DNA of 64,000 bases from Candidatus Micrarchaeota archaeon (lineage in GTDB: Archaea; Micrarchaeota; Micrarchaeia; Micrarchaeales; CABMGC01): contig JAJYYF010000002.1 in NCBI GenBank assembly GCA_021801225.1, forward strand, positions 317 through 64,316, in the 5' to 3' direction. This document shows positions 6,446-59,105 of the stretch, piece after piece. Position numbers and translations under genes: made by a program. Numbering within the stretch: the first letter of the stretch is position 1; each line of letters opens with the position of its first letter. The notes under the pieces were generated by a model that searched no databases, was not told the DNA's origin, and saw only the letters and a list, made by a program, of their open reading frames with translations.

Positions 6446-7079
6446 TATGTATAACTCAAATATAAACAATATTGATTCAAAAGTAAAACACTCTAAAAAG
6501 AATGTTGCAATTGCTGTAATTTTAGTTATAGTTATTTTTTCAATAATTGCATATGTGATTAGCACTAATTACAATGTACAACATCAAAGTTCAAACGGTA
6601 TAAATAATGTTCCAATAAATGTCAAGCTTAGCTCTGCTGTTGGTTCAGGTTCATATCATTATTTTAACTTAACGAGGAGTAGTACAATTAGAAATATTAC
6701 ACTTATTAACCAATTATATAACTTAAACATCTCAAATAGAAACATAACAAGCGGAGTGAAGGTAGCATATTATGGGTCTAACTCGGTATTAGAGTTAATA
6801 TCAATTCTTAATACATCTGCTTCAAATAATTATCACAGCACTTTAAATCACGAGTTAATAACACATCAATACTCTCCAATTTACAATAAAACATACAATG
6901 GCGTAAATTATTCTGAACTTTATCGTATTTATAATGGAAATGTAAAATCATTTCTTATTTTAGGATATTATAAAAATTACTTTGCAGTTATTTTATCAAC
7001 TGGAAATTATAGCACATCTTCAGTTACAAATTACACAATTCCTGCACTAGTGAATATAATAAGTTCTCAAACAACTTAA
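6446..7079 (+). CDS. Hypothetical N-terminally anchored extracytoplasmic protein, sequon-rich
   Basis: ORF track 6408..7079. Likely start is the ATG at 6446, just after the upstream stop. Single TM (VAIAVILVIVIFSIIAYVI), then many N-x-S/T sites. No recognisable domain. Confidence 0.5.
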
Positions 7080-7117
7080 ATATTTATTTAATAAAAAAAT
7101 AAAAAGTTTACTTTATT

Positions 7118-7885
7118 CTATGCGTTTTGCATCTTGCTTTTTATTACTCTTTTTAATTTATCCCCGAACGTTTCGTAAATTCCATTTAACTTAATTATTT
7201 TAATTTCTTTTTCAGAAGATTTCACTCTAAAAGAATCCCCTTTTCTAATAGTACCAACAGTAAAGTTATCATACCTTAGAACTCCTTCATACTTTGAAAT
7301 CTCTATCTCAATTGTTTTATTTGAGTTTACTACAAGCGCGTTTCTATAAGGTCCATCGGGATTAATAAATGTAATACAAAAAAGATTATTCTCAAGAAGT
7401 ATAGGCCCTCCTGCACTTCTATTATAAGCTGTAGAACCTATTTTACTACTTATTATAACTCCATCTCCTCCTACAACAAATGGGTATATATGTTGACGCT
7501 TGTTGTTTATGATCTCATAAACTTTGAAGCTTACTTCCCCAACACTGTTTGATAAGTAACACTCGTTAATTGCATAATATTTTTTATTTTTATACGTTAA
7601 GAGAAGTTTTTTACCTAATAATTCAACATGATAATTTTTATTTTTTAATAAATGTATTACTTCATCAATTCTATCTACTCCTAAATCTGAGTAATAGCCT
7701 GTACTATCATCAGTATTATCCCGTATTAAAAGTATGGGACAGGAAGTTTTTTGTGCTGCATGAATAAATGTACCATCTCCTCCTATTACTAGGCAAATCT
7801 CTCCGTTTTTTACTACCTCAAAGTTACTTCTTATCTTTCTTTCTATTTCTGGATACTTTTTTTTAGTGAAAAGAGATACGTTCAT
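7118..7885 (-). CDS. nadK: NAD(+) kinase
   Basis: GGDGT motif (VIGGDGTFIHAA) and second motif VVGGDGVIISSKIGSTAYNRSAGGPIL typical of NAD kinases. Sits 2 nt downstream of the E3 gene. Confidence 0.85.
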   Translation of the reverse strand: MNVSLFTKKKYPEIERKIRSNFEVVKNGEICLVIGGDGTFIHAAQKTSCPILLIRDNTDDSTGYYSDLGVDRIDEVIHLLKNKNYHVELLGKKLLLTYKNKKYYAINECYLSNSVGEVSFKVYEIINNKRQHIYPFVVGGDGVIISSKIGSTAYNRSAGGPILLENNLFCITFINPDGPYRNALVVNSNKTIEIEISKYEGVLRYDNFTVGTIRKGDSFRVKSSEKEIKIIKLNGIYETFGDKLKRVIKSKMQNA

Positions 7886-7887
7886 AC

Positions 7888-9267
7888 TTATTTACCATTT
7901 TCATTATTTTTTCCATAAAAGAAATGTATTGGTCTTCCTAAACCTGCTTCTGCTACTTCCTGTATTTGTTCAGTATATGTTGGATGAGGATGTATTGTAT
8001 CTGCAATGTCTTCTAATGTTGCACCCATCTCTATGGCTAACGCAGCTTCAGCAACCATTGCATTTGCATCAGACGATACAATTTCAATACCTTTCACTAC
8101 TTTATTTTTATCATATGCAATCTTAACAAAGCCATCTGTCTTGTTCATTGCTATTGCTCTTCCAAGTGCAGTTAATGGGAACTTTTTAATGTAAATTCCT
8201 GTTTTTTCAGAAACATCTCCTGCTATTCCAATTTCTGGGTCTGAAAATACAACTGCTGGTATTACGACATTGTCGAAACCGGCATTTTTTCCAGCAGCTA
8301 CCTCTGCCGCGATGACCCCTTGTCTCATTGATTTATGTGCAAGCATCGGTTCCCCTATAACATCTCCAATTGCTAATATCTTTTCATCTGCTGTGTTTAA
8401 CGATTGTCCGACAGTTATGAAACCTTTTTGATCTACAACTACTTTAGTATTTTCTAAACCTAAATTATCAGTGTATGGTTTTAATCCTACTGCTACAACA
8501 ACTAACTCGTGCGGTATTTCTTCTCCTGACTTCAATTTAATTGAGGTTTGTGTATGTGACTCAGGAACTGAGTTTTTGTAAATTTTAACATTTAACTTTT
8601 CAAGGCTTTTTTCTATTATTGAAACAGCTTCAGGATCAAAATGTGATAGAATAGTTGATCGTGCAAGTATAGAAACAGAAACACCAAGCTTAGCATAAAG
8701 TGTAGCTAACTCTACTGCAACATATCCTGCTCCTATTATTGTTAATGTTTTAGGTATTGTTGAAAGCATTAATGCTTTTTTATAGTCAAGTATGTAGTCA
8801 TTAAACTCAAAGCCCTTTAACTCTACTGGGACAGAACCGGTTGCTATTATTGCGGTATCAAAATCAATCTCAGTTCCATTAGTTATCTGTAACTTTTGAG
8901 AGGATATGAATGTTGCTCCGCCTTTTACTATCTCTATTCCATTAGAGTTACATAAAAATTCTACACCTTTTTCTAGCTTTTCAGAAACGCCCATTCTCCA
9001 CTCTAATATTTTTTGTGCATTTATTTTTGGCTCAGCTTCTATTCCGAAGTTTTGTGAGTTCTTTGCTTTGTGGTATATATCAGCAATGTGCAATAGTGTT
9101 TTAGACGGTATACACGCATAGTTTAAGCAATGGCCACCCATCTTGTCCTTTTCTATTATAATTACTGAAAGACCTAGCTCAGCGGCGCGTATAGCCGCGA
9201 CATAACCTCCTACACCACCACCTACTATTGCAAGATTTACTTTTTCAGGTATAGAGCCCATTACCAT
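7888..9267 (-). CDS. lpdA: Dihydrolipoyl dehydrogenase (E3 of the 2-oxoacid dehydrogenase complex)
   Basis: FAD-binding GGGVGGYVAAIRAAELG, redox-active disulfide CLNYACIPSK, NAD-binding IIGAGYVAVE, C-terminal HPHPTYTE His-Glu region. Confidence 0.9.
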   Translation of the reverse strand: MVMGSIPEKVNLAIVGGGVGGYVAAIRAAELGLSVIIIEKDKMGGHCLNYACIPSKTLLHIADIYHKAKNSQNFGIEAEPKINAQKILEWRMGVSEKLEKGVEFLCNSNGIEIVKGGATFISSQKLQITNGTEIDFDTAIIATGSVPVELKGFEFNDYILDYKKALMLSTIPKTLTIIGAGYVAVELATLYAKLGVSVSILARSTILSHFDPEAVSIIEKSLEKLNVKIYKNSVPESHTQTSIKLKSGEEIPHELVVVAVGLKPYTDNLGLENTKVVVDQKGFITVGQSLNTADEKILAIGDVIGEPMLAHKSMRQGVIAAEVAAGKNAGFDNVVIPAVVFSDPEIGIAGDVSEKTGIYIKKFPLTALGRAIAMNKTDGFVKIAYDKNKVVKGIEIVSSDANAMVAEAALAIEMGATLEDIADTIHPHPTYTEQIQEVAEAGLGRPIHFFYGKNNENGK

Positions 9268-9275
9268 AAAATCAA

Positions 9276-10640
9276 CTAAGCAATTAACTCTAGAAAATCA
9301 GGATCCTCTAGATATCTTTTCAGTGCATTACCAAAAGCTACTGCATCAGCTCCATCAACTACTCTGTGATCAAATGTAAGTGAAAATGGAAGTATTTTTC
9401 TTATTTGAATCTCACCATCTTTGACTACAGGTGTATCTCTTATTAGATGTATTCCTAATATTGCAACTTCAGGATAATTTATCATTGGGACTGAAAAATC
9501 TCCTCCTCCTAAACTTCCTATATTGGTTATAGTAAATGTTGAGTCTGACATATCCTCTAATGAAACCTCTGCTTTTTTAACTTTCTCTGACAACATTTGT
9601 ATCTCTTTTGCAATATCTGAAATATTCTTCTTCTCAGAATTTTTTATAACTACAACCTTTAATCCATCAGGACCTTGTGCTGCTAATCCTATATTGTAAT
9701 ATTTTTTTAATATTATCTCAAGTTTTTCATGATCATAACTAGAGTTAAATCGTGGATTCTCTTTAATTGCTTCTATTGTTGCCTTAATTATAAATGGTAA
9801 GAAAGTAAGCTTTACATTTCTTTTAGCCATGTTCTCCTTTTCCCTTTTTACTAAATCGTAAAGATTTGTTACATCTATGTGATCCATATGCACTGCTCTT
9901 GGTATTGACCATGATAACTCCATATTCTTTGCTATTGCTTTTCTTGTTTGTGTTAATGGAACTCTTTCAATATCTTCTGTGTGTGACTTTTCTAATGTTT
10001 CTGAAAACTTAGGGATTGATGTTTTCTTATTTGTACTTATTGAAGCGGATCTAACATCATTTTCAAGTATCTTTCCATTAGGACCTGTTCCTTTTACTGT
10101 ATTTATATCAATATTCAAGTCTCTTGCAAGTTTTCTTACGCCTGGTGTTGCAATGACCTCTGTTTTTTGTTGTTGCTTTGTTGTATTCATTTGTGGTTGA
10201 ATTGTATTTGTTTGTTGTTGATTTATGTTTGTTTGCGGTTGTGTCGTAGTTTTTTGTGGCTGTGCTGTGCTAGTTGAAGGAGCATTAATTGCAGCATCAG
10301 AATCCGGCGCAAAACCAAACTCCTTGATACTTTCTTGTTCGTGTATTGCCTTACTGATAACACTACTTGATGGTCCTTGTGTTGTTTGTTGAGGTGTTGT
10401 TGTAGAAACATCATCTCCTACAAATGCTATTGTATCTCCTGTCTTAAGTGTTGTATTTTCTTTTGCAACTATCTTTAACTTACCAGATACTGGTGCAGGT
10501 ATATTTACTACTGCTTTGTCAGTTTCTATCTGTACTATAGTTGTATCTTCTTTTACCGAATCTCCGTCTTTGAACAACCATTTTTTAACATTTCCCTCTG
10601 TTATTCCTTCTCCAACATCAACAAATTTTAACTCTTTCAT
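9276..10640 (-). CDS. Dihydrolipoamide acyltransferase (E2)
   Basis: Lipoyl domain with IETDKAVVNIPAP, Q/T/P-rich linker, peripheral subunit-binding domain (ATPGVRKLARDLNIDINTVKGTGPNGKI), catalytic DHRVVDGADA. Confidence 0.9.
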   Translation of the reverse strand: MKELKFVDVGEGITEGNVKKWLFKDGDSVKEDTTIVQIETDKAVVNIPAPVSGKLKIVAKENTTLKTGDTIAFVGDDVSTTTPQQTTQGPSSSVISKAIHEQESIKEFGFAPDSDAAINAPSTSTAQPQKTTTQPQTNINQQQTNTIQPQMNTTKQQQKTEVIATPGVRKLARDLNIDINTVKGTGPNGKILENDVRSASISTNKKTSIPKFSETLEKSHTEDIERVPLTQTRKAIAKNMELSWSIPRAVHMDHIDVTNLYDLVKREKENMAKRNVKLTFLPFIIKATIEAIKENPRFNSSYDHEKLEIILKKYYNIGLAAQGPDGLKVVVIKNSEKKNISDIAKEIQMLSEKVKKAEVSLEDMSDSTFTITNIGSLGGGDFSVPMINYPEVAILGIHLIRDTPVVKDGEIQIRKILPFSLTFDHRVVDGADAVAFGNALKRYLEDPDFLELIA

Positions 10641-10643
10641 AAC

Positions 10644-11627
10644 TCAACCCTTTAACAGTTTATCCAATGCATAAGATATCTTCTTTTCATTTGGAACATA
10701 GAAGTTTTCATATCCTGGATATGGATATGGGAAACTATTTCCACCTACTCTTACAATAGGCGCATTTAATTTATAAAGCGCTTTTTCAGAAATTCTTGCT
10801 GCTATCTCCGCTCCTACGCCAAAACTTAATGATGCTTCGTGAACAATGGCAACTCTTCCTGTTTTACTAACACTTTCTAAAATAGTTTTTTCATCTATTG
10901 GATTTATAGTTCTCAAATCAATTATCTCAGCATCTAGCTTTTTCTTTTCAACAACACTTTTAACTACCGGAACCATAGTTCCATATGTAACTATACTTAA
11001 TTTACTGCCCTCTCTCACTACCTTTGCTTTTCCTATTGTAACTTCATATGGTTCTTCAGGAACTTCTTCTCTAAATAAACGGTAAAGTTTTGTTGGCTCT
11101 AAAAATACAACTGGATCATTCATTCTAGACGCTTTTATAAGCAAACCTTTTGCATCATAAGGTGTAGATGGTTCCACAACTATTAAACCACCAATGTGCG
11201 AGTAGTACGTTTCTGGACTATCTGAGTGATGTTCTAGTGTTCTGACACCTCCACTTACAGGTGTTCTTACAACCATTGGTAAACTCATATTAGATCGTGT
11301 TCTAGTTCTATATCTAGAAGCGTGATTTATTAATTGTGAAAAACCTAAGAACATAAAACCTGCGAACTGAATCTCTGATATAGGGTGTAAACCTGAAAGT
11401 GCCATCCCTATAGATGTTCCAATAATTCCTGATTCAGCTAATGGTGTATCAACTACTCTATTTTCACCATACTTTTCTAATAAACCTTCAGTAACTCTGA
11501 AAACACCACCGTCTTTTCCTACGTCTTCTCCTAAAATTAACGCTTTGTCATTTTCTTTCAATATTATATCTAATGCATTGTTAAGTGCAGAAACCATATT
11601 CATTTGCATAAAAACACCTACTGCCAA
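10644..11627 (-). CDS. 2-oxoacid dehydrogenase E1 component, beta subunit
   Basis: Transketolase-like pyrimidine-binding and C-terminal domains (LGEDVGKDGGVFRVTEGL..DTPLAESGIIG..). Overlaps E1 alpha by 10 nt; real start probably the internal MQMNM. Confidence 0.9.
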   Translation of the reverse strand: MAVGVFMQMNMVSALNNALDIILKENDKALILGEDVGKDGGVFRVTEGLLEKYGENRVVDTPLAESGIIGTSIGMALSGLHPISEIQFAGFMFLGFSQLINHASRYRTRTRSNMSLPMVVRTPVSGGVRTLEHHSDSPETYYSHIGGLIVVEPSTPYDAKGLLIKASRMNDPVVFLEPTKLYRLFREEVPEEPYEVTIGKAKVVREGSKLSIVTYGTMVPVVKSVVEKKKLDAEIIDLRTINPIDEKTILESVSKTGRVAIVHEASLSFGVGAEIAARISEKALYKLNAPIVRVGGNSFPYPYPGYENFYVPNEKKISYALDKLLKG

Positions 11628-12685
11628 AAGTTATTCGCCTCAGCTTCATCAAACTCTTCACGAAGTGTTTGTGGCATAAAGCTGTAAACTGTACTAAACA
11701 TACTTCTAGGATCTGGTTTAAATCTTTCAGCTTTTTCTACAGATTCATCAACTAATTTAGAAATTGCTTCAGTTTCTTGTTGTTCTCTTGCATCATTCCA
11801 TAATCCTTTTTTAACTAAATACTTTTTAACACGTTCAATAGGATCTTTCTTTTTCCATGTTTCTACCTCAATATCTGTTCTGTACTTTGTAGGGTCATCA
11901 GATGTAGTGTGTAAACCCATTCTGTATGTTACACACTCTATTATCATTGGGCCTTTACTTGAGTTTGTTATTGCATCTTTAGTTGCTTTATAAACAGCTA
12001 AAACATCATTTCCATCTACTTGAATAGAATCGATACCTACTGCTATAGCTTTTTGAGCTAATGTTTTTGCCATTGTTTGTTCATTTCTAGGTAGTGAAAT
12101 TGCCCATTGATTATTCTCTATTATTGTTATTAGTGGTACTTTCCAAACGCCTGCGAAGTTAATTGCTTCATAAAAATCTCCTTCTGAAGTTCCTCCATCT
12201 CCGACATAAACTAAAACGGCCGAGTCTTTTTTAAGATATCGTTGTGCAAAAGCAATTCCTGTAGCATGTGGCATCTGCGTTGCAACGGGAACTATTATTG
12301 GAAATGCATTGAGCTCTTTTGGAAAAACATTTCCTTCCTCAAAACCTCTCCAGTATAAGAATAATGAGTCCATTGGAACTCCTCTTTCTATAAATACTCC
12401 ATGTTGTCTAAAAGCTGGAACAAAGATATCTTGTTTTCTCATAGCCATTGCTGTTCCTATCTGTGTCGCTTCCTCACCTAGTAAAGGTGCATATGTTACT
12501 GCACGTCCTTGTCTTTGAAGACTAAGGACTTTAGCATCGACAGCTCTTGCAAGCATCATTCCTTTATACATCTCTAAAATCTGAGAATCACTTATGTCCT
12601 GTGGCATAACTGTCTGATCTATTTCTCCCTCTTCATTCATTATTTGAAGATATTTAACTGAGCCATTAAACGCTTCACTTATCAA
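11618..12685 (-). CDS. 2-oxoacid dehydrogenase E1 component, alpha subunit (ThDP-dependent)
   Basis: ThDP-binding motif YVGDGGTSEGDFYEAINFAGVWKVPLITIIENNQWAIS. TTG or an internal ATG start is possible. Confidence 0.9.
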   Translation of the reverse strand: MISEAFNGSVKYLQIMNEEGEIDQTVMPQDISDSQILEMYKGMMLARAVDAKVLSLQRQGRAVTYAPLLGEEATQIGTAMAMRKQDIFVPAFRQHGVFIERGVPMDSLFLYWRGFEEGNVFPKELNAFPIIVPVATQMPHATGIAFAQRYLKKDSAVLVYVGDGGTSEGDFYEAINFAGVWKVPLITIIENNQWAISLPRNEQTMAKTLAQKAIAVGIDSIQVDGNDVLAVYKATKDAITNSSKGPMIIECVTYRMGLHTTSDDPTKYRTDIEVETWKKKDPIERVKKYLVKKGLWNDAREQQETEAISKLVDESVEKAERFKPDPRSMFSTVYSFMPQTLREEFDEAEANNFWQ

Positions 12686-19726: not shown

Positions 19727-20092
19727 TTGATATACATGAAGGATAACATTAAAATGGATTTCACCTGCGTAAATAAGAATTTTAAAAGTGGCATTTTAAG
19801 AATTTTGATAATTAAAAAATTGGAAAACAAAAAAACACACACATACGCACTGATGAAAGAGATACAATCAAATAAGAAAATTTCTTTAAATGTTACAAAA
19901 AATGATATATATAATGTAATATTGGCAATGGAAAAATTAGGTTTGATAAAATATACATTAAACAAAAAAAATAAAACTCAGAAAGTTTTAGAACTAACTC
20001 CCAGAGGTAAATCACTATCAAAAAAATTTAAATTTATAGTTAAGAATTATTTAAAATCATTGAATGAACTAATGGTGGAAATGAATGAATGA
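19727..20092 (+). CDS. PadR-like winged-helix transcriptional regulator
   Basis: ILRILIIKKLENKKTHTYALMKEI..DIYNVILAMEKLGLIKY..LELTPRGK matches the PadR wHTH pattern. Start may be the ATG at 19736. Overlaps the ABC ATPase start. Confidence 0.6.
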   Translation: MIYMKDNIKMDFTCVNKNFKSGILRILIIKKLENKKTHTYALMKEIQSNKKISLNVTKNDIYNVILAMEKLGLIKYTLNKKNKTQKVLELTPRGKSLSKKFKFIVKNYLKSLNELMVEMNE

Positions 20093-21074
20093 TTATGCAG
20101 TAGTCATTAAAGATATTAAAAAAGTATTTGGAACCTTTCAAGCAGTTAAAGGGATATCCTTCAATATTAAAAAGGGAGAAATTTTTGGTATTTTAGGACC
20201 TAACGGAGCTGGAAAAACAACTACCTTGAATATGATATTAGGTTTACTGAAACCAACATCAGGAAGTATAACAATTGAAGGATACGATAATGTTAAAAAT
20301 TCGATCAAAGTTAAGCAGTTATTAGGCTTCATGACTCAGGAAACTGTAGTAGATGGATATCTTAAAGCTAGAGATAACTTGGAAATATTTGCAAGGTTGT
20401 ATCATGTTCCTGAAAATGAAATTGAAAAAAGAGTTAATAAGGCATTAGAAGATGCTAACTTAAAAGAATTTGCAGATAAACCAGCTGGTACATTCTCAGG
20501 AGGAATGCAAAGAAGATTGAATCTTGTAAAATCTATGTTACAAGAACCGAGTATATTAATTTTAGATGAACCTACTACAGGTTTAGATGTACAAAGCAGA
20601 GTCGGAATGTGGGATAGTATTAAGAAGTTAAATGATAAGGGCATAACTGTTATCTTAACTACTCAGTATTTAGAGGAGTCTGATGCGTTGTGCGACAGAA
20701 TAGCAATAATTGATCATGGTGAAATAAAAGCAATAGGCACTGCTTCAGAGTTAAAAAGAATGGTTTCAGAAGGAAATATACTTGAGATAACACTTAAACC
20801 AGAGGACATAGAAAAGGCAAAAAAGATTATGACAAGCAAATTTAATTTAGAGATATCTACAAGAGGAGATATAATCAGAAGTAACATTGAAAAGGACTCG
20901 ATGGGATTATCAATTAAAATTGCGCAATATTTAGAAAAAGAGAAGATAAACGTTCTTGCTTATAGTGTACATCTTCCAACAATGGATGATGTTTTCATAA
21001 AGCTTACAGGAGCTAGTTTCAGAGATGATACTTCTTCAGAAAATATTGCTTCTAAAGCTAGATTTAGGAGGTAA
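20085..21074 (+). CDS. ABC transporter ATP-binding protein (ABC-2/DrrA-like)
   Basis: Walker A GPNGAGKTT, signature FSGGMQRRL, Walker B ILILDEPTTGLD, H-loop region. Confidence 0.9.
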   Translation: MNDYAVVIKDIKKVFGTFQAVKGISFNIKKGEIFGILGPNGAGKTTTLNMILGLLKPTSGSITIEGYDNVKNSIKVKQLLGFMTQETVVDGYLKARDNLEIFARLYHVPENEIEKRVNKALEDANLKEFADKPAGTFSGGMQRRLNLVKSMLQEPSILILDEPTTGLDVQSRVGMWDSIKKLNDKGITVILTTQYLEESDALCDRIAIIDHGEIKAIGTASELKRMVSEGNILEITLKPEDIEKAKKIMTSKFNLEISTRGDIIRSNIEKDSMGLSIKIAQYLEKEKINVLAYSVHLPTMDDVFIKLTGASFRDDTSSENIASKARFRR

Positions 21075-21078
21075 TTAG

Positions 21079-22188
21079 TTGACACTTTTTAATGATTCAA
21101 TAACAATTGCAAAAAGAGAAATGTTAGTTTTCAAAAGTAATCTTAGGACTAATATTATAAGGTCACTAATGTTTCCTCTAATAATTATATTATTTTTTGG
21201 GAATTTAGGTACATCTGTGTCTAATGTTCCTGTTGCAATAGTAAACTTAGCAAATAATCAAATTTCAAATCAATTTATAAGTACTTTACAAGGACAGAAT
21301 ATTATAAATATAATTACACTTACAAATCAAGAAACGGCCCTTTCATTGCTTCAAAATGGTGAGGTCACCGCAATAATAACAATAACACCATCATTTCCTC
21401 AAAATCAGAATGGAAATCCATCTGTTTACATTTATTACTCAAATAGCGAGTTTAGTACTGTAAGTGCCATACTTCCATTTATAGAAAGCACTGCGTCAAG
21501 TTTTGGAAGTTCTGTGCAGCAAAAACAACAACAAACTGCACCAATAGTTTCTTCAAATCCTACAACAGGCGCATCAAGTAACTATCGTGACTTCATAATT
21601 GCAAGTGTAATAATAATGGCAACTGCGTTCGGTTCAATTTTTGGAAGCGGATTCTCAATAATAGTAGATAGGCAGTTGGGAACTATAAAATCATTTTTAG
21701 TAGCTCCAATAAATAAAGATGCGATTTTATTAGGAAAATTACTTGCAGGAACTCTGCAATCATTATTATACGGCATACTTGCTTTGTGTTTAGGCTTTCT
21801 GTTTGGAGCAGGGATAGCAATGGGTTTTGTAGGATTTTTATGGATTCTCGCATTGATATTTTTTGTCTCGTTATCTTTTAACGCAATCGCATTAATTGTT
21901 GCATCTAGGATAAAAACTGTTGAACTGTATGCAATTGTTGCACAAGCAATAACACTTCCAACATGGTTTCTTTCAGGAGCATTCTTCCCATCTTCATCAT
22001 TCCCTTCATTTATACAACCATTTAGTATAGGAGATCCATTAACTTATGCAACTAGTGGGATAAGGGATGTAATGCTCTCAGGTTACTTTCCATTAAACCA
22101 TATAATTACTGATTTCAGCATTATGATTATATTTTCTTTTATAATAGTGCTTATGAGTTTTAGATTATTTAAGAGTACAATAGATTAA
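21079..22188 (+). CDS. ABC-2 type transporter permease
   Basis: TTG start 6 nt after a GGAGGT SD. N-terminal TM, large extracytoplasmic loop, then 5 C-terminal TM helices, typical of ABC-2 permeases. Confidence 0.8.
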   Translation: MTLFNDSITIAKREMLVFKSNLRTNIIRSLMFPLIIILFFGNLGTSVSNVPVAIVNLANNQISNQFISTLQGQNIINIITLTNQETALSLLQNGEVTAIITITPSFPQNQNGNPSVYIYYSNSEFSTVSAILPFIESTASSFGSSVQQKQQQTAPIVSSNPTTGASSNYRDFIIASVIIMATAFGSIFGSGFSIIVDRQLGTIKSFLVAPINKDAILLGKLLAGTLQSLLYGILALCLGFLFGAGIAMGFVGFLWILALIFFVSLSFNAIALIVASRIKTVELYAIVAQAITLPTWFLSGAFFPSSSFPSFIQPFSIGDPLTYATSGIRDVMLSGYFPLNHIITDFSIMIIFSFIIVLMSFRLFKSTID

Positions 22189-22205
22189 AAAATAAATGTG
22201 ATATT

Positions 22206-23819
22206 ATGATAATAAAAAGTGATAGAATGAAAAAAATAACAAACATATGGATGCTATGTGCATTAATTATTTTAGCTATACCTACAATTGTAACTGCACA
22301 GAGTATAAATAATGCATTATCTGTGACTAATTTGCAAATTTCTCCAAATCCTATATTATCAGGTTCGCAAATACAGGTGTCATTTCAAATATATGATTCA
22401 TACTCTTCAGAGTTAACTAATGTTAATCTTCAATTACAAGGAGCTTATCCAATACTTAATTTTTCTCCAACAAACTCGTATTTGATAAATACCATGTCCC
22501 AAGGAATTTATGGTGGTTCAAATACCTACTTTAATTACAATATAAATATACCAAAAAGTACTCCGTCTGGGACATATACTCTAGATGTTTTAGCGACATA
22601 CCAAACAACTCAAAGTGTTTCTGGTGGAACTCAAACTATAACAGGTTCTTCAGTAATACCTATAACATTCTATGTGAACGGAGTTCCAAATATAACAGTA
22701 ACTTCAGAACCAAGCAGCATAATACCAGGACAGAACTTTGGGGTTTCTTTGAATGTACTAAACTCTGGTTATGGAGCAGCTAAAAATATAACAGTGTCTT
22801 TACTAAATACATCCGGATTTACTCCTGTCGGAGCAAAATCATTCAATATAGGTTATTTAAGTGCTGGTTCTTCAGTCCAGTTAACATCAACATATCAGGC
22901 AAGTAAGTTTATATCTAATGGAACATATAAAATGCCCATTGTGGTTTCATATCAAACCGTAACTGGAAAATCATATGTACAAAATCAAAATCAAAGTTTA
23001 GAAGTATTAATAAACAATCCAAATATAGTAGTGAGTGTGCTATCAGAACAACCTCAAACATTATACAAAGGATATAACCAAAGTTTAGTTTTAGGTATAA
23101 CAAATATAGGAACGGGCACTGCAGAAAATGTAACTGCTAACTTTTATTCTGGATATGGAATAAATGTTTTAAGCTCAGTTTCAAGATTTTTCATAGGTAG
23201 TATAAGTCCAAGCCAAACTGTAACTGAATCATTGTTAATTTCTGCTTCTAATTACAGTTCTGACAACGCATCTTTTTACTCCCAACTAAAGTATTTATCT
23301 GCAAACTACAGATCAATATTCGAGAAGAATCAGACCATTCCGATAACTGTAGCTTCATCATCTACATTTAACATAACCAATGGAACATACTCAATAACTC
23401 CTGGATCAACTACAGTTCCTTTAAATTTAGTTATAACAAATACTGGAAATATAGATGCAGAAAACATACAAATATCTCTACAGAGTAGTTATCCAATAAC
23501 TCCAGTAACAAGTTCGTATTACATCGCTTCATTAGCACCTGGACAGAGTGCAAATGTAAGTTTCCAAGTTAGTGCCAACTCAAACGCAAATCCAGGTTTA
23601 TATCCAATAACATTATACGAAACATGGAAGCAACCGAACGGTGCGATAGAGCAACTTTACTCAGGAACAAATGTATATTATGCAAGCATTACTAACGGGG
23701 CAGGAGGAGGATCAGGTCAGATTGTAGATGTAATCATAGTTATCATAGTAGTTATTGTGTTGATTACTGCATACAGGAGAATGAAGTCATCTAGAAAGAA
23801 GAAGGCAGAAAAGAAATAG
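22206..23819 (+). CDS. Surface protein with repeated CARDB/COG1361-like (S-layer domain) modules, C-terminal TM anchor
   Basis: Signal peptide. Repeated beta-sandwich-like units (..ISPNPILSGSQIQVSFQIYDS.., ..IIPGQNFGVSLNVLNSGYGAAKNITVSL.., ..LVITNTGNIDAENIQISL..). C-terminal TM plus a basic tail RRMKSSRKKKAEKK. Confidence 0.6.
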   Translation: MIIKSDRMKKITNIWMLCALIILAIPTIVTAQSINNALSVTNLQISPNPILSGSQIQVSFQIYDSYSSELTNVNLQLQGAYPILNFSPTNSYLINTMSQGIYGGSNTYFNYNINIPKSTPSGTYTLDVLATYQTTQSVSGGTQTITGSSVIPITFYVNGVPNITVTSEPSSIIPGQNFGVSLNVLNSGYGAAKNITVSLLNTSGFTPVGAKSFNIGYLSAGSSVQLTSTYQASKFISNGTYKMPIVVSYQTVTGKSYVQNQNQSLEVLINNPNIVVSVLSEQPQTLYKGYNQSLVLGITNIGTGTAENVTANFYSGYGINVLSSVSRFFIGSISPSQTVTESLLISASNYSSDNASFYSQLKYLSANYRSIFEKNQTIPITVASSSTFNITNGTYSITPGSTTVPLNLVITNTGNIDAENIQISLQSSYPITPVTSSYYIASLAPGQSANVSFQVSANSNANPGLYPITLYETWKQPNGAIEQLYSGTNVYYASITNGAGGGSGQIVDVIIVIIVVIVLITAYRRMKSSRKKKAEKK

Positions 23820-31051: not shown

Positions 31052-31747
31052 TTATTTATTTAAAGAACTTAGATAAACTGCTAATGGTTTCGATAAATTA
31101 TTTTTAATTACAACTGCTCCTTCTATTTTTGCCCTAGAAAAATTAGTTTTATCTATATTACAATTTTCAAATACTGCATTAGTTAGATCTGCACCTGTGA
31201 AATTAGTATAATCTAAATCGCTATTTAGGAAGTGTGTATTTCTAAATATTCCATTAGATGCATTTATATTTATGAATCTTGATTCTGCAATTTTTGATTC
31301 TGAAAAATCAGTTTTTATGCAAGTAGCCTGTCTGAGATTTGTGTTTATTAAAATAGATCCTTGTACTTTTGAGTTAGATAAATCTACATAAGCCATATAT
31401 GCGTTTGAAAGATTAGAGTTATTAAAACTACATTCTGTTGCTTTTACACCTACAAAGTTTGCACGCAGTAACTTTGATTTATTAAATATTCCACCACTCA
31501 AATCTGATCCTTCAAAGTTTGTGTTACTCAAATCAGAATCAATTATAATGAGATTTGGTAAATCACTCTTTTTAAGATCTTTACCTATTAATTTAATTTG
31601 TTTATAGTATTTGTATCCGATGGAGTACTCTCTTAATAGCTCCTCTGAACTTATCTCCTTTCTTTCTTTCCTTAAAACATTTTCTAATGGTTTTTCACCA
31701 TTTCGGGGTTTTTCTCTAAATTGGGCCATATTATCACATTTTAGCAT
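31052..31747 (-). CDS. Pentapeptide repeat protein
   Basis: Long run of A(D/N)LxX pentads: SDLSNTNFEGSDLSGGIFNKSKLLRANFVGVKATECSFNNSNLSNAYMAYVDLSNSKVQGS..ADLTNAVFENCNIDKTNFSRAKIEG. Confidence 0.8.
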   Translation of the reverse strand: MLKCDNMAQFREKPRNGEKPLENVLRKERKEISSEELLREYSIGYKYYKQIKLIGKDLKKSDLPNLIIIDSDLSNTNFEGSDLSGGIFNKSKLLRANFVGVKATECSFNNSNLSNAYMAYVDLSNSKVQGSILINTNLRQATCIKTDFSESKIAESRFININASNGIFRNTHFLNSDLDYTNFTGADLTNAVFENCNIDKTNFSRAKIEGAVVIKNNLSKPLAVYLSSLNK

Positions 31748-32776: not shown

Positions 32777-33043
32777 ATGATAAGCGGAATAGTAACATCT
32801 TTAGATGAAAATCAATTATTAGTGATACCTTCCTCAAGTACTCCCTTAGAAGAACTTGTTGGTAAAAAGGCTCGTTATGTAGATAAATCTGGAAAGGTTT
32901 GGAAAGCTGAGGTGTATGCAGTAGAAGATCCTGGAGTACTGATAAAATTTGAGTTATTCCCTAGCGGATTAGGACAAGGACAGATAATAGATATTATAGA
33001 AAATGAGGATAATGAAGCTGCATTTTTATCAGGAGAGATATAA
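32777..33043 (+). CDS. Small acidic beta-barrel-like protein (Gar1/L35Ae-like pattern, tentative)
   Basis: ISGIVTSL..LLVIPSS..LVGKKARYVDKSGKVWKAEVYAVEDPGVLIKFE..GLGQGQIIDI resembles the L35Ae/Gar1 barrel pattern. The protein is clearly acidic, which argues against a bona fide r-protein. Confidence 0.3.
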   Translation: MISGIVTSLDENQLLVIPSSSTPLEELVGKKARYVDKSGKVWKAEVYAVEDPGVLIKFELFPSGLGQGQIIDIIENEDNEAAFLSGEI

Positions 33044-33655
33044 TTATTTTTTCTTAAATGCTGCTTTTAATCTATCAAAACCTTCTGAAACAATAACATA
33101 ACTGCCACTTATTGTTATTATTGCAGGGATAGGATTCAATGTAAGTACAGATGTAGCTATCCCTGATGCAATTAAAGTTTTTGATATTGGCGCTGATAGT
33201 ATATCTGCAAATATTTGTTTTTTTGAAGTGGATAACTTTGTAGATGAGTCAATATCAAAAATACATATACCACTTTTAAATGCACGTGTGTGTTTATCTT
33301 CTTCACTAGATAATATAGAGACTATCTCTGGTATTTTTTTACTTGTTCCTAATGCAAATGCATGTCTTTTTCCATGACCTACGAACTTATCTGAATAAAT
33401 TAATGTAGCGCCATAATGTAATAATCTCCCTTTTTTGTCTATAATCATTGCTCCATCAAGTGATGCTAAATGCTTTATTGTTGTTTTATCTTTTTTATTT
33501 AATACTGATAAGTGTTTACCATTTTTTTTAAATATATCAGAGTTATAGTCTTTGTAGTATTTTGTCTTTACTTTTTCCGTCTCTACTACAAAACAACAGC
33601 CCTCCTTTTGATTTGTAGATAAATTTAAACACTCCTCTATAATCTTATCCATCAT
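33044..33655 (-). CDS. DAC (DisA_N, diadenylate cyclase-like) domain protein with C-terminal TM anchor
   Basis: LASLDGAMIIDKKGRLLHYGATL..GHGKRHAFALGTSKKIPEIVSILSSEEDKHTRAFKSG aligns by eye with the CdaA core HDGAVII..LGTRHRAALGISE..IVVSEETGGIS. The DGA motif is kept and RHR is RHA. C-terminal hydrophobic stretch TLIASGIATSVLTLNPIPAIITISGSYVIV. Confidence 0.55.
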   Translation of the reverse strand: MMDKIIEECLNLSTNQKEGCCFVVETEKVKTKYYKDYNSDIFKKNGKHLSVLNKKDKTTIKHLASLDGAMIIDKKGRLLHYGATLIYSDKFVGHGKRHAFALGTSKKIPEIVSILSSEEDKHTRAFKSGICIFDIDSSTKLSTSKKQIFADILSAPISKTLIASGIATSVLTLNPIPAIITISGSYVIVSEGFDRLKAAFKKK

Positions 33656-33782
33656 GTCGCCGATTAAATAAAGAAGTAATATTTTATAAATCTTTCTTTA
33701 AAAAAAGAAATAGTGGAAAACTAAAGTATATGAAAATTTATATAAGATTAATCTAAAAAATAATTTAAGAATAAATATAAAT

Positions 33783-34481
33783 TTAACAAGACGTATAAAT
33801 TAAATCTCGCTGGGTTATTTTTAAAGCTTTTTCTAATGAAAGTTCGTTTAACCTAATACACATTTCATTTTCCATTGATTTAGATAATTCAGGATTAGTA
33901 TGCCTTACAAAAGACATGTATTTATTGAATAAATCTTCACTATCGTTATCAAAAACTACTCTATTTCCAGCTGTTGAAATAGATTTAGGTATATGTAGAC
34001 CGTATGCAAAATTAACAGACATTGATTTGCCATTACCTATTTGAGTAACGATTTCATCTAAATACGAATAATGAATTCTATCTTTTTTATTTTTTATTGC
34101 TTCAGAAAAAAAAGTTACCGAAGTTTCAGGATATCCTAATAAGAGTCCAATTGAATTATGGTCCTGATTCTCAAGTTTATGGATTAATAAATTTAATTTA
34201 TCTAAATCATTTGATATTGCTAAAGAGGTAAATTGTGATCCTGTTTTACCTTTTTCAGTTTTAGCATAAATACCAAATTCTGATAGAGTATCTATTATAT
34301 TATTAAAGTTAGTTTCTATAGAGAGAGTTATTATTGCGCATGGCTTTTTTGATTTTGCAACAAGATAAGCTGAGAGATTATCTCTATGGTCTTTAAATAG
34401 AGTTTTAAGTGAAGCTTGTAATAAATTATTATTCGAATTAGTTTTTGTTTTTGATAATTTTATAAGTTGTTCTGAATCCAT
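33783..34481 (-). CDS. Hypothetical protein
   Basis: Long ORF; contains GLLLGYPETSVTFF. No confident family assignment. Confidence 0.5.
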   Translation of the reverse strand: MDSEQLIKLSKTKTNSNNNLLQASLKTLFKDHRDNLSAYLVAKSKKPCAIITLSIETNFNNIIDTLSEFGIYAKTEKGKTGSQFTSLAISNDLDKLNLLIHKLENQDHNSIGLLLGYPETSVTFFSEAIKNKKDRIHYSYLDEIVTQIGNGKSMSVNFAYGLHIPKSISTAGNRVVFDNDSEDLFNKYMSFVRHTNPELSKSMENEMCIRLNELSLEKALKITQRDLIYTSC

Positions 34482-34561: not shown

Positions 34562-35032
34562 TTAATTTCTTAAGGTATCTAAATATAAAAGAGTATCAAT
34601 TCTATAAATTATACTGTCTTTTTTTACTCTTAAATTAAAATGATTTGGATATTTGGAATTGCAATCAGGATACTCTAATTTATTATATGGATTTTTTATA
34701 AAATTACTTAAGATTAAAACCTCATCATTCATGCATTCTTTATCTGTTTTTATAACTTCTTTTATTAATTTTATTCCTAATTTATCATTGTTTTTTTTAA
34801 AGAATTTTACTAGAGTATTAAGTTGATAATATAAAGTAGCTCTACGATTAAAAACCACACTTATTGGATTTAGATAATCTTCAACACCGATATTTTTGAA
34901 AGCTTTAATATAAATTTTAAAAGATTTTAAAAACTCGTTTTCAAACTCTGACAACTCGGATTTTCTGGAATATCTTTTTGAGATTATAAGTAATTTTTTG
35001 AGATTTTCTGGTTTTCTATATTCTATTTGCAT
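34562..35032 (-). CDS. Hypothetical protein
   Basis: ORF with coding-like composition; no motif recognised. Confidence 0.45.
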   Translation of the reverse strand: MQIEYRKPENLKKLLIISKRYSRKSELSEFENEFLKSFKIYIKAFKNIGVEDYLNPISVVFNRRATLYYQLNTLVKFFKKNNDKLGIKLIKEVIKTDKECMNDEVLILSNFIKNPYNKLEYPDCNSKYPNHFNLRVKKDSIIYRIDTLLYLDTLRN

Positions 35033-35202: not shown

Positions 35203-36711
35203 TTATGCCATCTCTATTTTTGGTTCAGTTATGTTAGGATACTGTGGTTTTTCAGATCTCACATGTTTTCCTCTGGTTATAGAGGCTATTCCTGCAATTA
35301 TTAGTATAAATATCAGTACAATTAATGAAACCTGCATTCCAGATACAAAACCTGCAGACTCAACTGCATTTAAAGAGGAGCTGCCTACAAATATCTCAAA
35401 TGCAAGTGAACTTGGTATTGAGGAAGCAGCAGCTACAATTACAATTACAAAACTACTAACTAATCCAATGTTAGATACTAGTCTTAATAAACCTGAAGCA
35501 GCACCGTATGAAGATTTTTCTGCATTTGACATTATTGCATTGCTATTTGCAGGATAAAACATTGCACCGCCTATTCCAACTAAGCCTGAGCCGAGAACCA
35601 CTAGATAAATTGAGGAATTGAGAGTTATAGTATATAGATAAACACCTATGCCGATTATGATTAGCATAATTCCAATTGTTGCTATCTCCCTAGCGCCGTA
35701 TTTATCGGATAGTTTTCCCATTTTAGGTGCAAATATTGCACTGAGTATATACCCCGGTACAAGTAGCAAAGATGCAAAAAATGGAGAGAAACCCCTTACA
35801 CCTTGTAAATACATTATAAGCATAAATGTTGCTCCGATAAATCCCATACTTTGAAAGAACGATGCAATTAAAGAGTTTCTAAATATTTTATTTTTAAATG
35901 ATTTGAAGTCTATAGTAGGATCCTTTGATCTCTTTTCACTATAAATAAATAGTAATAGGAAAACTAATCCTATAATTAAGAGTGAGATTACTAGTAAAGA
36001 TAAGCCAGTTACTGCTACTTCTATGCCTCCATATACAAGTAATGTTATTGCTACAGTTAATAAAAGCATTCCGAGTAAATCTATCTTTGATTTTATTTTG
36101 TTCGTATCCTTAATATATTTAAGTCCTAATGCAAATGCTATTATTCCGATAGGAACATTTATGAAGAAAATATATTGATAACCTAAGAAAGTAGTTATGA
36201 AGCCTCCTAAAATAATACCTAAAACTGCGCCTAAACTCCAACCTATTGCAGTAAATCCAAATGCTCTTCCTATGCCTCCTTTTTTAAATGTGTCGGCAAT
36301 TATAGCCGTACTTGTTGATTGTAATAATGCGCCGCCTACAGCTTGTATTGCTCTGAAAAATATTAATATTATTGCGGTTGGTGCCAAGCCACAAAACAAT
36401 GAAGCGATTGTAAATATCGCAAAGCCTAAATTAAACATCTTGCTTCTTCCGAATATGTCTCCTACTCTTCCCAACTGCATCGAGAGTATGGCAGTTACAA
36501 GTATGTATATTAAGATTACCCAGATTATTGTTGCAAAGTTAGAGTGTAGAGCAGAAGTTATGGCAGGAAAAGCAAGAAGTACTATAGTACTGTCTATAGA
36601 TGCCATAATGACACCTATGGTAATTACAAAGAGTATTATATTCTCATGAACTGGCTTTTCATTTGTTTTAATACTTTCTTTTGTTTTTGTATTTTGATTT
36701 TTTTCAGGCAT
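35203..36711 (-). CDS. MFS transporter (14-TM DHA2/EmrB-like)
   Basis: About 14 hydrophobic segments. MFS motif A-like GRVGDIFGRSKM between TM2 and TM3. Confidence 0.85.
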   Translation of the reverse strand: MPEKNQNTKTKESIKTNEKPVHENIILFVITIGVIMASIDSTIVLLAFPAITSALHSNFATIIWVILIYILVTAILSMQLGRVGDIFGRSKMFNLGFAIFTIASLFCGLAPTAIILIFFRAIQAVGGALLQSTSTAIIADTFKKGGIGRAFGFTAIGWSLGAVLGIILGGFITTFLGYQYIFFINVPIGIIAFALGLKYIKDTNKIKSKIDLLGMLLLTVAITLLVYGGIEVAVTGLSLLVISLLIIGLVFLLLFIYSEKRSKDPTIDFKSFKNKIFRNSLIASFFQSMGFIGATFMLIMYLQGVRGFSPFFASLLLVPGYILSAIFAPKMGKLSDKYGAREIATIGIMLIIIGIGVYLYTITLNSSIYLVVLGSGLVGIGGAMFYPANSNAIMSNAEKSSYGAASGLLRLVSNIGLVSSFVIVIVAAASSIPSSLAFEIFVGSSSLNAVESAGFVSGMQVSLIVLIFILIIAGIASITRGKHVRSEKPQYPNITEPKIEMA

Positions 36712-57704: not shown

Positions 57705-59105
57705 TTATTAAGAGGATATTTGTACTTCTTTTGTGATATCCTCCAACGACTAAAAGTCGTTGGCTTCTAGAGTGGTTATGATTGGTCGTCATGAAATCAC
57801 TCGTGTAGTTCCTCCTTCTATGATTCTACTTGCATCCTCCTGTTGAGGTGTAGAGGTAAAATCTCCAGAGGCGTAACTTCCCCCTTGTCCAGAGGTAGAT
57901 TTGACAGTTTTGCTGTCAAAATTTGAACTCGTAGAGTTCAAAGCTCTATTGAGTATATTTATTGATGCATTTAAATCTCTGTCTTTTGACATTCCACATT
58001 TTTTACAGTTGAATGTCCTTTTAGACAAAGGCATATTTTGTATATTTCCACATTTACTACATGTTTTTGAGGTATCTTTAGGATTTACACCAACTACTAC
58101 GCAACCAGCACTTTCAGCCTTGTATTGCAGATAGTTTATGAAATTGCCCCAAGATTCTTCACCTATGCTTCTTGCAAGATTATGATTTTTCATCATATTT
58201 GCAATTTTCAGTTCCTCGTATGCAATGAATGAGTATGAATTTACAAGATTATATGATAATTTATGAAGCCAGTCTTCTTTTATACGTAGAATATGCTCAT
58301 ATTTTCTTGAAAAATTTAGAACTGCTTTTCTTCTATTATGAGAACCTTTCTTTTTTCTTGAAATTATTTTTTGAAGTTTTTTAAGTTTAATTCTGTCCTT
58401 CTTTGAAATGTGTTTATTTTGAAGAATTGAACTATCAGATAAAACAGCATATTGATCTATACCTAAATCCATGCCTACTTTAGATTTATCATTTGATACA
58501 AAAGGTTTATCCTCCTTTTCAACTGCGATGGTGACATACCATTCCTGCGACTTTGTTTTCTTTATTGTGCACGTCTTTACCTCTCTTCAATTTCTCTATG
58601 ATTCACAAAGTTTATTCTACCTACTTTCGAGAGCTCTACCTTTTTCTTCTCTATTTTAAAGCCATTAGTTTGAGGATATGTTAGAGAAGATACAAAATTT
58701 TTATATCTCGGAAATCCAACTTTTACTTTTTTTCCCTGTTTCTTTTCTTTGCATCTTCTAAAGAAATGCCTATACGCATCTGATACTCTTTTTGAAACAT
58801 TTTGTAGAACCTGTGAATGTAGTTCTGAAAATTCTGGTCTTTCCTTTTTAATCTGCGTAAGCCAAATATTCATTCTATATTCAGTTAGAGTTTTACCTGT
58901 TCCCATGTAGTAGGTTTTTGATTTTTCAAGAAGAAGATTATAGAGCTCTTTTGAAAGAAACATCTGTCTGTTCAGAGTTTCCTTCTGCTCTTTTGAAGGA
59001 TATGCACGATATTTATATGCAATTTTCATTTATCACGACCATATTTAATATATTGTTAATGTTTGTATATATTCGCTTTCATCCCACGATTAAAATCGTG
59101 GGTTT
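57705..59105 (-). mobile_element. IS200/IS605-family element, TnpB-only (IS1341-like), decayed
   Basis: Related subterminal hairpins at both ends: 59083-59102 (CCCACGATTAAAATCGTGGG) and 57743-57763 (CCAACGACTAAAAGTCGTTGG), plus a second hairpin at 57712-57743 (GAGGATAT..ATATCCTC). They enclose a split tnpB. No tnpA. Boundaries approximate. Confidence 0.75.
57789..59029 (-). pseudogene. tnpB: tnpB (RNA-guided nuclease family) interrupted by two frameshifts
   Basis: N-part 58577..59029 (MKIAYKYRAYPSKEQKETLNRQM..). The middle 35 codons are readable only in a third frame (EVKTCTIKKTKSQEWYVTIAVEKEDKP). C-part 57789..58472 has RuvC D (MDLGID), E (YEELKI), a zinc finger CSKCG..CKKCG and DRDLNASINI. 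Confidence 0.8.

Follow-up and report, generated by a model that had tools for sequence, protein, structure and literature searches.

Introduction

Archaeal cyclic di-AMP (c-di-AMP) biology rests on a few euryarchaeal DacZ enzymes. The DacZ of Haloferax volcanii is an experimentally active cyclase (PMC6741144), and dacZ was stated to be absent from DPANN in a 2025 paper (PMC12699388). Here we analysed a stretch of 64,000 nucleotides (the window) from a Candidatus Micrarchaeota archaeon (assembly GCA_021801225.1, contig JAJYYF010000002.1, positions 317 to 64,316), in which a gene on the minus strand at 33044..33655, here termed dac, encodes a protein of 203 amino acids with a diadenylate cyclase (DAC) domain and a predicted C-terminal membrane hairpin. 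We consider it probable that this protein is a working membrane-tethered diadenylate cyclase, i.e. a c-di-AMP synthase, of a DPANN-specific class. An earlier note on this DNA, made from the letters alone, had remarked that c-di-AMP signalling was unexplored in small-genome AT-rich archaea, and indeed the searchable literature held no paper on c-di-AMP in Micrarchaeota or in DPANN. The gene itself has not gone unnoticed, since NCBI already labels its relatives ‘diadenylate cyclase’ or ‘DisA nucleotide-binding domain protein’. Furthermore, the Galperin 2023 census is said to subdivide the DAC classes into 22 families and reportedly covers candidate archaeal phyla; the architecture of a DAC domain followed by a C-terminal hairpin may already be described, for example there.

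Identity and fold of the DAC domain

The catalytic domain (DisA_N) spans residues 1-140 (33236..33655, minus strand) according to Pfam, AlphaFold2 (AF2) and Foldseek. The protein matched PF02457 with 38.2 bits (E=1.2e-9) against a Pfam gathering score of 27 bits, residues 14-127 aligning to model positions 8-115 of 119, and its 72 full-length homologues all carry or align to the same family. AF2 models, run with 34 and with 149 sequences, gave pLDDT values >90-94 over residues 1-140 in both cases and >94 over residues 1-130 in one of them. A Foldseek search of the PDB with the model yielded 70 matches at E <= 0.001, and the top 50 matches listed were all DACs, those at the head of the list being CdaA, DacM or CdaM, with CdaA (6hvm) giving the best E-value (1.2e-7) and DacM (7dg0) the best TM-score (0.75) within a target-normalised range of 0.57-0.75. 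Profile, fold and motifs thus confirmed the protein as a genuine member of the DAC-domain family, as the earlier note had proposed from an alignment by eye. The separate short N-terminal region that it had also described was not borne out: the helix at residues 2-13 already belongs to the DAC domain, as its first, and the N-terminus is hydrophilic and without an N-terminal module.

Active-site motifs and the second arginine

Motifs were placed by aligning a profile of 34 homologues with solved CdaA chains, after which the codons were read in the DNA. Three motifs were located on the minus strand in this way: D67-G68-A69 (33449..33457), aligned to the DGA of CdaA, which is the ribose and metal site in characterised DACs; G95-K96-R97-H98-A99 (33359..33373), the counterpart of G-T-R-H-R; and S117-E118-E119-D120 (33296..33307), the counterpart of the S-E-E-T that forms the phosphate and metal site of CdaA. 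The intact DGA and the G-K-R-H-A in place of G-T-R-H-R, both already read in the earlier note, were therefore upheld by the CdaA alignment and the codons. Relative to G-T-R-H-R, the central R-H is kept, Thr is replaced by Lys and the second Arg by Ala. Column counts in hidden Markov model (HMM) alignments of the Micrarchaeota clade showed how little these residues vary, with D in 71/73 sequences, G in 71/73 and A in 72/73 for the DGA, K96 in 73/73, R97 in 72/73, H98 in 73/73, S117 and E118 each in 73/73 and E119 in 71/73. The DGA residues are also conserved across the wider tail-bearing family and the DacZ-like proteins in the HMM alignment. All residues common to the characterised DACs and DacZ, i.e. 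D67, G68, A69, R97, H98, S117 and E118, are retained.

The position of the second Arg behaves differently. It is Ala in 70/73 and Glu in 3/73 proteins of the Micrarchaeota clade, mostly Ser (34) or Ala (23) and never Arg among 66 proteins of the wider tail-bearing family, and among 81 DacZ-like proteins it is A in 20, R in 10, L in 9, S in 8, I in 8 and V in 6, with others making up the remainder. All eight NCBI-named DacZ (from Haloferacaceae, Halorubrum, Haloarcula, Haloterrigena and Halalkalicoccus) read K-G-L-G-A-R-H-M-A-G-G-A-I-T. Given the lack of Arg in all 66 family members, its presence in only 10 of 81 DacZ-like proteins and the GARHM of the haloarchaeal DacZ, RHR is a bacterial consensus, with R-H alone conserved in archaeal DAC domains, which corrects a common assumption. 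In the literature readable to us we found no single-residue mutant of the second Arg; the mutants found were triple RHR-to-AAA replacements, and therefore nothing shows that this residue matters by itself. The suggestion that the RHA variant signals altered activity or a binding-only role is consequently not supported, as the same position is variable in archaea, the named haloarchaeal DacZ read GARHM and the DacZ of H. volcanii is active.

Two further positions deviate from the bacterial pattern. The Thr preceding R-H contacts phosphate in Staphylococcus aureus DacA (PMC6368335); haloarchaeal DacZ carries Ala in its place, most DPANN members keep Thr, and the Micrarchaeota clade, and it alone, has an invariant Lys, the wider family reading mostly G-T-R-H-[SA]. 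In addition, T84 aligns with the adenine-stacking Tyr of CdaA, at a position where CdaA and DacZ-like proteins mostly have an aromatic residue and the wider family has M, K, R, N or Q; the stacking Tyr is also missing in DisA and CdaS, both of which are active. The departures from Thr and from the second Arg do not disqualify the protein as a cyclase, because haloarchaeal DacZ with its GARHM lacks both and the DacZ of H. volcanii is active.

These residues bear on the possibility that the protein is a pseudo-enzyme or receptor whose DAC domain binds ATP or c-di-AMP at the membrane and does not cyclise. The pocket, with K96 for Thr, A99 for Arg and T84 for Tyr, is indeed unusual in comparison with bacterial DACs, and turnover or receptor genes are missing from the window; however, the A99 and Thr positions vary among DacZ-type domains, the Tyr is absent from the active DisA and CdaS, and D67, R97, H98, S117, E118 and E119 are near-invariant when a mere binder would need fewer of them. 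Moreover, both members of a paralogue pair described below retain DGA and KRH, and a receptor would require a cyclase elsewhere, with dacZ reported absent from DPANN (PMC12699388). On this balance a purely binding role seems unlikely.

Catalytic competence was therefore taken as the default reading of the DAC domain, since the ligands of the set from D67 to E119 are near-invariant, the Arg position is variable in archaea and the gene is conserved at the protein level: the ratio of non-synonymous to synonymous substitutions (dN/dS) is 0.06-0.07 against three relatives (loci L006, L007 and L008), which places dac under strong purifying selection. A further hint came from a metagenomic homologue of 527 amino acids (P0121), in which an insertion of ~340 residues lies exactly between G-T-R-H and S-A-A. 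The insertion starts with CLSSDTEIL, ends with ITGN before the Ser, and has LAGLIDADG-like motifs and a TNEH block within it. By these sequence hallmarks it resembles an intein whose +1 residue is the Ser; Pfam recognised no intein domain in P0121. Inteins favour sites in functionally critical motifs. The intein-like insertion was for this reason counted in favour of the DAC motif being functional.

A cyclase of changed chemistry, using ADP or another nucleoside triphosphate or releasing a linear or mixed dinucleotide, would give a reason for T84 at a base-facing site that is usually aromatic in CdaA and DacZ-like proteins, and for the Lys96 that is invariant in the Micrarchaeota clade only, and it has a parallel in Mycobacterium tuberculosis DisA, which accepts ADP besides ATP. 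The ribose and phosphate ligands are nevertheless canonical, DisA and CdaS make c-di-AMP without the stacking Tyr, and we saw no positive evidence for another product, so that we hold such a departure to be quite unlikely.

The C-terminal tail

Downstream of the DAC domain, a linker helix (residues 143-158; 33182..33229, minus strand), for which AF2 gave helices 143-154 and 157-170 with pLDDT 74-89, varies more than any other part of the protein. It leads to an uncharged hydrophobic segment, TLIASGIATSVLTLNPIPAIITISGSYVIVS (residues 160-190; 33086..33178, minus strand), with N174-P-I-P177 (33125-33136, minus strand) in its middle as the predicted turn of a membrane helical hairpin, and to an amphipathic basic C-terminal end, SEGFDRLKAAFKKK (residues 191-203; 33047..33085, minus strand), modelled by AF2 as a helix over 191-201. 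This is the sole hydrophobic segment of the protein, which has no signal peptide, and it stops 13 residues short of the C-terminus.

The tail is more strongly conserved than the catalytic core. In the Micrarchaeota alignment, residues 159-195 form the most conserved region, with a mean majority fraction of 0.77 as against 0.69 for the catalytic core, and dN/dS of the tail is 0-0.02 relative to L006 and L007, nearly no non-synonymous change having accumulated though dS reaches 0.6-1.0. Among 149 family members the length of the uncharged stretch ranges from 29 to 58 amino acids with a median of 37. It usually has 2 Pro near the middle, its best 19-residue Kyte-Doolittle (KD) window has a median of 2.04 and is at least 1.6 in 132/149, and Gly, Ala, Ser and Thr make up about half of its residues. 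The end that follows has a median length of 10 amino acids and, counted over up to 15 residues beyond the stretch, a median of 4 K/R vs 1 D/E. Five members (P0099, P0112, P0116, P0127 and P0128) continue beyond the tail with a K/R-rich loop and two unmistakable transmembrane helices.

The length of the segment, the Pro turn at its centre and the positive-inside rule applied to its K/R-rich end make a two-helix hairpin with both ends cytoplasmic more likely than a single span. A re-entrant arrangement is also possible, because the two arms have just ~14-17 residues each. With 13 residues left between the hydrophobic segment and the C-terminus, insertion into the membrane would be largely post-translational. 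The tail-anchored protein with one or two C-terminal hydrophobic helices that the earlier note had described thus holds in part: the uncharged segment is real, and the strict single span is the less likely topology.

The tail might instead be the buried core of a soluble oligomer, comparable to the helical bundles of CdaS and DisA. The best KD window of the protein's own tail is 1.56, the segment consists of Gly, Ala, Ser and Thr to 40-50%, and conservation this extreme is atypical of a simple anchor. Across the family, in contrast, the median KD value and the 132/149 members at or above 1.6 point to a membrane segment, as do the 29-58 uncharged positions followed by a K/R-rich end and the members that go on with two unambiguous transmembrane helices, and a soluble cyclase is accordingly a very unlikely explanation for the tail.

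Distribution and phylogeny of the family

When one genome was scanned for each GTDB species, 25 dac loci were recovered, all of the Micrarchaeota clade; most are labelled Micrarchaeota, Micrarchaeia or Micrarchaeaceae, with a few labelled ‘uncultured archaeon’ and one Marsarchaeota. The closest relatives of the protein are encoded by metagenome-assembled genomes (MAGs) of Micrarchaeota, with 91% and 90% protein identity. When 1.84 billion cluster representatives were searched exhaustively with a profile, 566 matches were obtained at E <= 1e-3, of which the best ~60 are proteins of ~190-240 amino acids aligning over profile positions 4-200, the hydrophobic tail included, and a second profile search using distant members gave 268 proteins at E <= 1e-10, with Pacearchaeota, Nanoarchaeota and ‘archaeon’ MAGs among the named organisms and one entry labelled Nitrososphaerales. 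The next matches beyond the family are longer (260-450 amino acids) and have DacZ as their best full-length NCBIfam match.

In a neighbour-joining tree of the DAC columns only, one branch separates the 95/95 sampled tail-bearing proteins from the 54/54 DacZ-like proteins, and the Micrarchaeota proteins form one clade inside the tail-bearing group. Since architecture and DAC phylogeny agree, the tail-bearing DACs of ~200 amino acids form, by these sequence comparisons, a distinct DPANN class.

The family is single- or double-copy in DPANN genomes and near-universal within its clade. Two unlinked copies were present in three assemblies, namely L010 and L028 on OY969902.1, a complete chromosome of 852,977 bp, L019 and L029 on JAGWHK010000001.1, and L017 and L018 in JACWAL01, and a tandem pair was located at L022 5172-6606. 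The one paralogue pair that was aligned (P0024 and P0062, from L019 and L029 on one contig) keeps DGA, KRH and the tail in both copies. A metagenomic protein of 1930 amino acids (P0124) was rejected as a spurious match, as it matched the family profile in 22 short stretches, is highly repetitive and looks like a translated tandem repeat.

Proposed mechanism

We infer activity, product, membrane insertion, topology, a regulatory role of the tail and a physiological output as follows. The cytoplasmic part would consist of the single DAC domain of residues 1-140, in which, going by solved DACs, D67/G68, R97/H98, S117 and E118/E119 would bind ATP and a divalent metal, with the clade-specific K96 substituting for the phosphate-contacting Thr. 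Conversion of 2 ATP to c-di-AMP would need face-to-face pairing of DAC domains from different protomers. The linker helix would connect the domain to the 31-residue uncharged segment, most likely inserted as a two-helix hairpin that turns at N-P-I-P and leaves both the DAC domain and the Lys-rich C-terminus on the cytoplasmic side. Because it is conserved above the catalytic core and rich in small residues, the hairpin is probably more than an anchor; it would probably make a specific lateral contact, by self-association or with a membrane partner, that governs the pairing of the DAC domains. By analogy with other c-di-AMP systems, the output would probably be ion or osmolyte homeostasis.

Several observations weigh against a working, membrane-tethered cyclase. 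K96 and T84 are unusual pocket residues, and the GARHM argument draws on eight NCBI-named haloarchaeal DacZ, the exact H. volcanii DacZ sequence not being included among them. The hydrophobicity of the protein's own tail is borderline with its KD window of 1.56, AF2 gave pLDDT <50 over tail residues 165-192 in both runs, and the neighbour-joining tree carries no bootstrap support. Moreover, a Pfam scan of the ~60 open reading frames (ORFs) of the 64-kb window found no DHH-DHHA1, HD/PgpH, RCK_C, CBS, PII-like or USP domain, the window covering less than one tenth of a genome that is about 0.85 Mb or larger, and Rfam found one tRNA in the window and no c-di-AMP riboswitch.

As it stands, the minimal DAC of Micrarchaeota, shared by homology with Pacearchaeota and Nanoarchaeota, differs from DacZ, is predicted to be membrane-bound, is under strong purifying selection and sometimes occurs in two copies. 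If active, it would place c-di-AMP signalling in cellular genomes that are among the smallest known and help to define a minimal c-di-AMP circuit. Furthermore, it would be a DAC of very small size and without a regulator, with a membrane hairpin of 30-40 residues as its control element.

The dac gene and its genomic neighbourhood

The window has a GC content of 28-35%, encodes archaeal markers (RFC small subunit, Alba, L7Ae and EF-2) and holds one copy of dac; an identical copy of the DAC protein was found on contigs up to 114 kb. The 203-amino-acid reading frame, supported by the Pfam DAC match and the homologues, ends with the stop codon at 33044-33046 (minus strand). Translation may actually begin with the second ATG (33652), since close homologues start with MDK or MDR. 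A TATA-like box, TTTATAAA (33683..33690, minus strand), lies ~31 nt upstream of the dac ATG with a purine-rich stretch before it, as read from the sequence; it is weak evidence for a promoter because the intergenic region is very AT-rich. Direct reading of the upstream DNA showed no Shine-Dalgarno sequence, and therefore a near-leaderless transcript is possible.

The neighbours are as the earlier note had listed them, with a pentapeptide-repeat protein (31052-31747), an MFS transporter (35203-36711) and two ORFs without a significant family at 33783-34481 and 34562-35032. The former of these two (minus strand, 232 amino acids), which lies upstream of dac, has two paralogues in L006 (4066-4773 and 9036-9737) and a sub-threshold match to DUF483, and by sequence appears to be an uncharacterised lineage-specific family. 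On the other side, an ORF of 88 amino acids (32777-33043, plus strand) converges on dac with zero spacer, the stop codons abutting; it has counterparts of 57-82% identity in L006 to L009 and belongs to no Pfam or NCBIfam family.

The neighbourhoods of dac differ from locus to locus and consist mainly of housekeeping genes. This bears on an anti-virus role, with the DAC used in a CBASS-like manner. Some dac genes are reportedly linked to defence systems in the Galperin 2023 census. PADLOC, however, gave no match for the DAC protein or its neighbours, no conserved effector gene adjoins dac in most genomes, and near-universality within the clade together with strong purifying selection speaks for another use, so that a defence cyclase is extremely improbable here.

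A recurrent arrangement was nevertheless seen in 6/25 Micrarchaeota loci (L007, L008, L009, L024, L028 and L030, with DAC identities of ~45-90%), where a cluster of padR, an ABC ATPase, an ABC-2 permease and a CARDB/NPCBM_assoc protein of about 530-537 amino acids lies directly upstream of dac in the same orientation. In the window the cluster is found at 19736-23819 (plus strand), 9.2 kb from dac and on the opposite strand, and L006, the closest relative, has the same arrangement of cluster and dac. The linkage may be functional or merely ancestral synteny. In a bolder version, the protein would represent a sixth, DPANN-wide class of c-di-AMP synthase, with the hairpin itself acting as a sensor or docking element for membrane state or for a specific membrane partner, for instance the PadR-regulated ABC-2 exporter/CARDB cluster; we consider this rather unlikely. 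If true, c-di-AMP would be a core signal of genome-reduced, host-dependent archaea that are now assumed to be without it.

Downstream of the dac homologue of one Pacearchaeota contig (JAVZCO010000001.1, L031), a metallo-beta-lactamase-fold protein of 299 amino acids (6789-7688) follows immediately and matches the Anti-Pycsar Apyc1 family. Members of that family are cyclic-nucleotide phosphodiesterases. The protein may simply be RNase Z, and it was seen next to dac in this one locus.

Elsewhere in the window, a complete 2-oxoacid (pyruvate-type) dehydrogenase operon (7888-12640, minus strand) encodes E1 alpha, E1 beta, E2 with a lipoyl domain and E3, which is notable for a genome-reduced DPANN archaeon. 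A protein of 1360 amino acids with three divergent InlB B-repeat (Flg_new_2) domains (2360-6442, plus strand) is probably a large surface protein. An IS605-family OrfB/TnpB at 57789-59029 (minus strand) is split in two ORFs, of 150 amino acids with HTH_OrfB_IS605 and of 227 amino acids with OrfB_IS605 and a Cas12f1-like TNB domain, and probably represents a transposon-encoded nuclease that is frameshifted or decaying.

Comparison with characterised DAC classes

The 203-amino-acid protein lies outside all five characterised classes: CdaA, DacZ, CdaM, CdaS and DisA. It scored 14.9 bits with the CdaA model TIGR00159 (cut-off 188.8) and 27.2 bits with the DacZ model NF041371 (cut-off 430), the CdaM model NF038327 gave no match at E up to 1, and neither the CdaS model NF038328 nor the DisA model NF010009 matched. 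Nor does the protein have the additional parts of these classes, as it lacks an N-terminal extension and a helix-hairpin-helix (HhH) domain, and Pfam found no DACZ_N (PF19294), for which there would be no room at the N-terminus. The proposal that its architecture is unlike both CdaA and DacZ was thereby substantiated, the protein being a DAC domain with a C-terminal segment and no N-terminal module.

The predicted tethering is most like that of CdaA or CdaM, and the DAC domain is closest to that of DacZ. The first profile matches outside the family are DacZ-like, and with DacZ/CdaZ (HVO_1660 and the CdaZ of Methanocaldococcus jannaschii) it shares a motif that lacks the second Arg (G-x-R-H-x and then A-A), the conserved DGA and the S-E. 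DacZ, for which we found no structure in the PDB, is in contrast soluble and carries an N-terminal DACZ_N domain (pyruvate-kinase-C-like), whereas here an N-terminal domain is missing and a C-terminal hairpin is predicted. CdaA/DacA resembles the protein as a membrane-tethered DAC facing the cytoplasm, the tether being predicted in our case, and gave the best PDB fold E-value and sequence matches; it differs in having three N-terminal transmembrane helices, G-T-R-H-R and the stacking Tyr, in place of a C-terminal anchor, G-K-R-H-A and T84. The Mycoplasma CdaM/DacM, with the best TM-score (7dg0, 0.75), is likewise minimal, with one membrane element and a DAC domain in ~200 amino acids, but its single transmembrane helix is N-terminal and RHR is present, whereas the hydrophobic segment is C-terminal here. 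DisA, with ~360 amino acids, is composed of the DAC domain, a helical linker and, at the C-terminus, an HhH domain that binds DNA, compared with 203 amino acids in the present protein, and CdaS places an autoinhibitory domain of two helices before its DAC domain, which has no counterpart here. Finally, tail-anchored proteins share the cytosolic N-terminal domain, the lack of a signal peptide and a lone hydrophobic segment, which here lies 13 residues from the C-terminus; the 31-37-residue length of the segment, its central prolines and the basic C-terminal end fit a hairpin with both ends inside better than a single span with an exoplasmic C-terminus.

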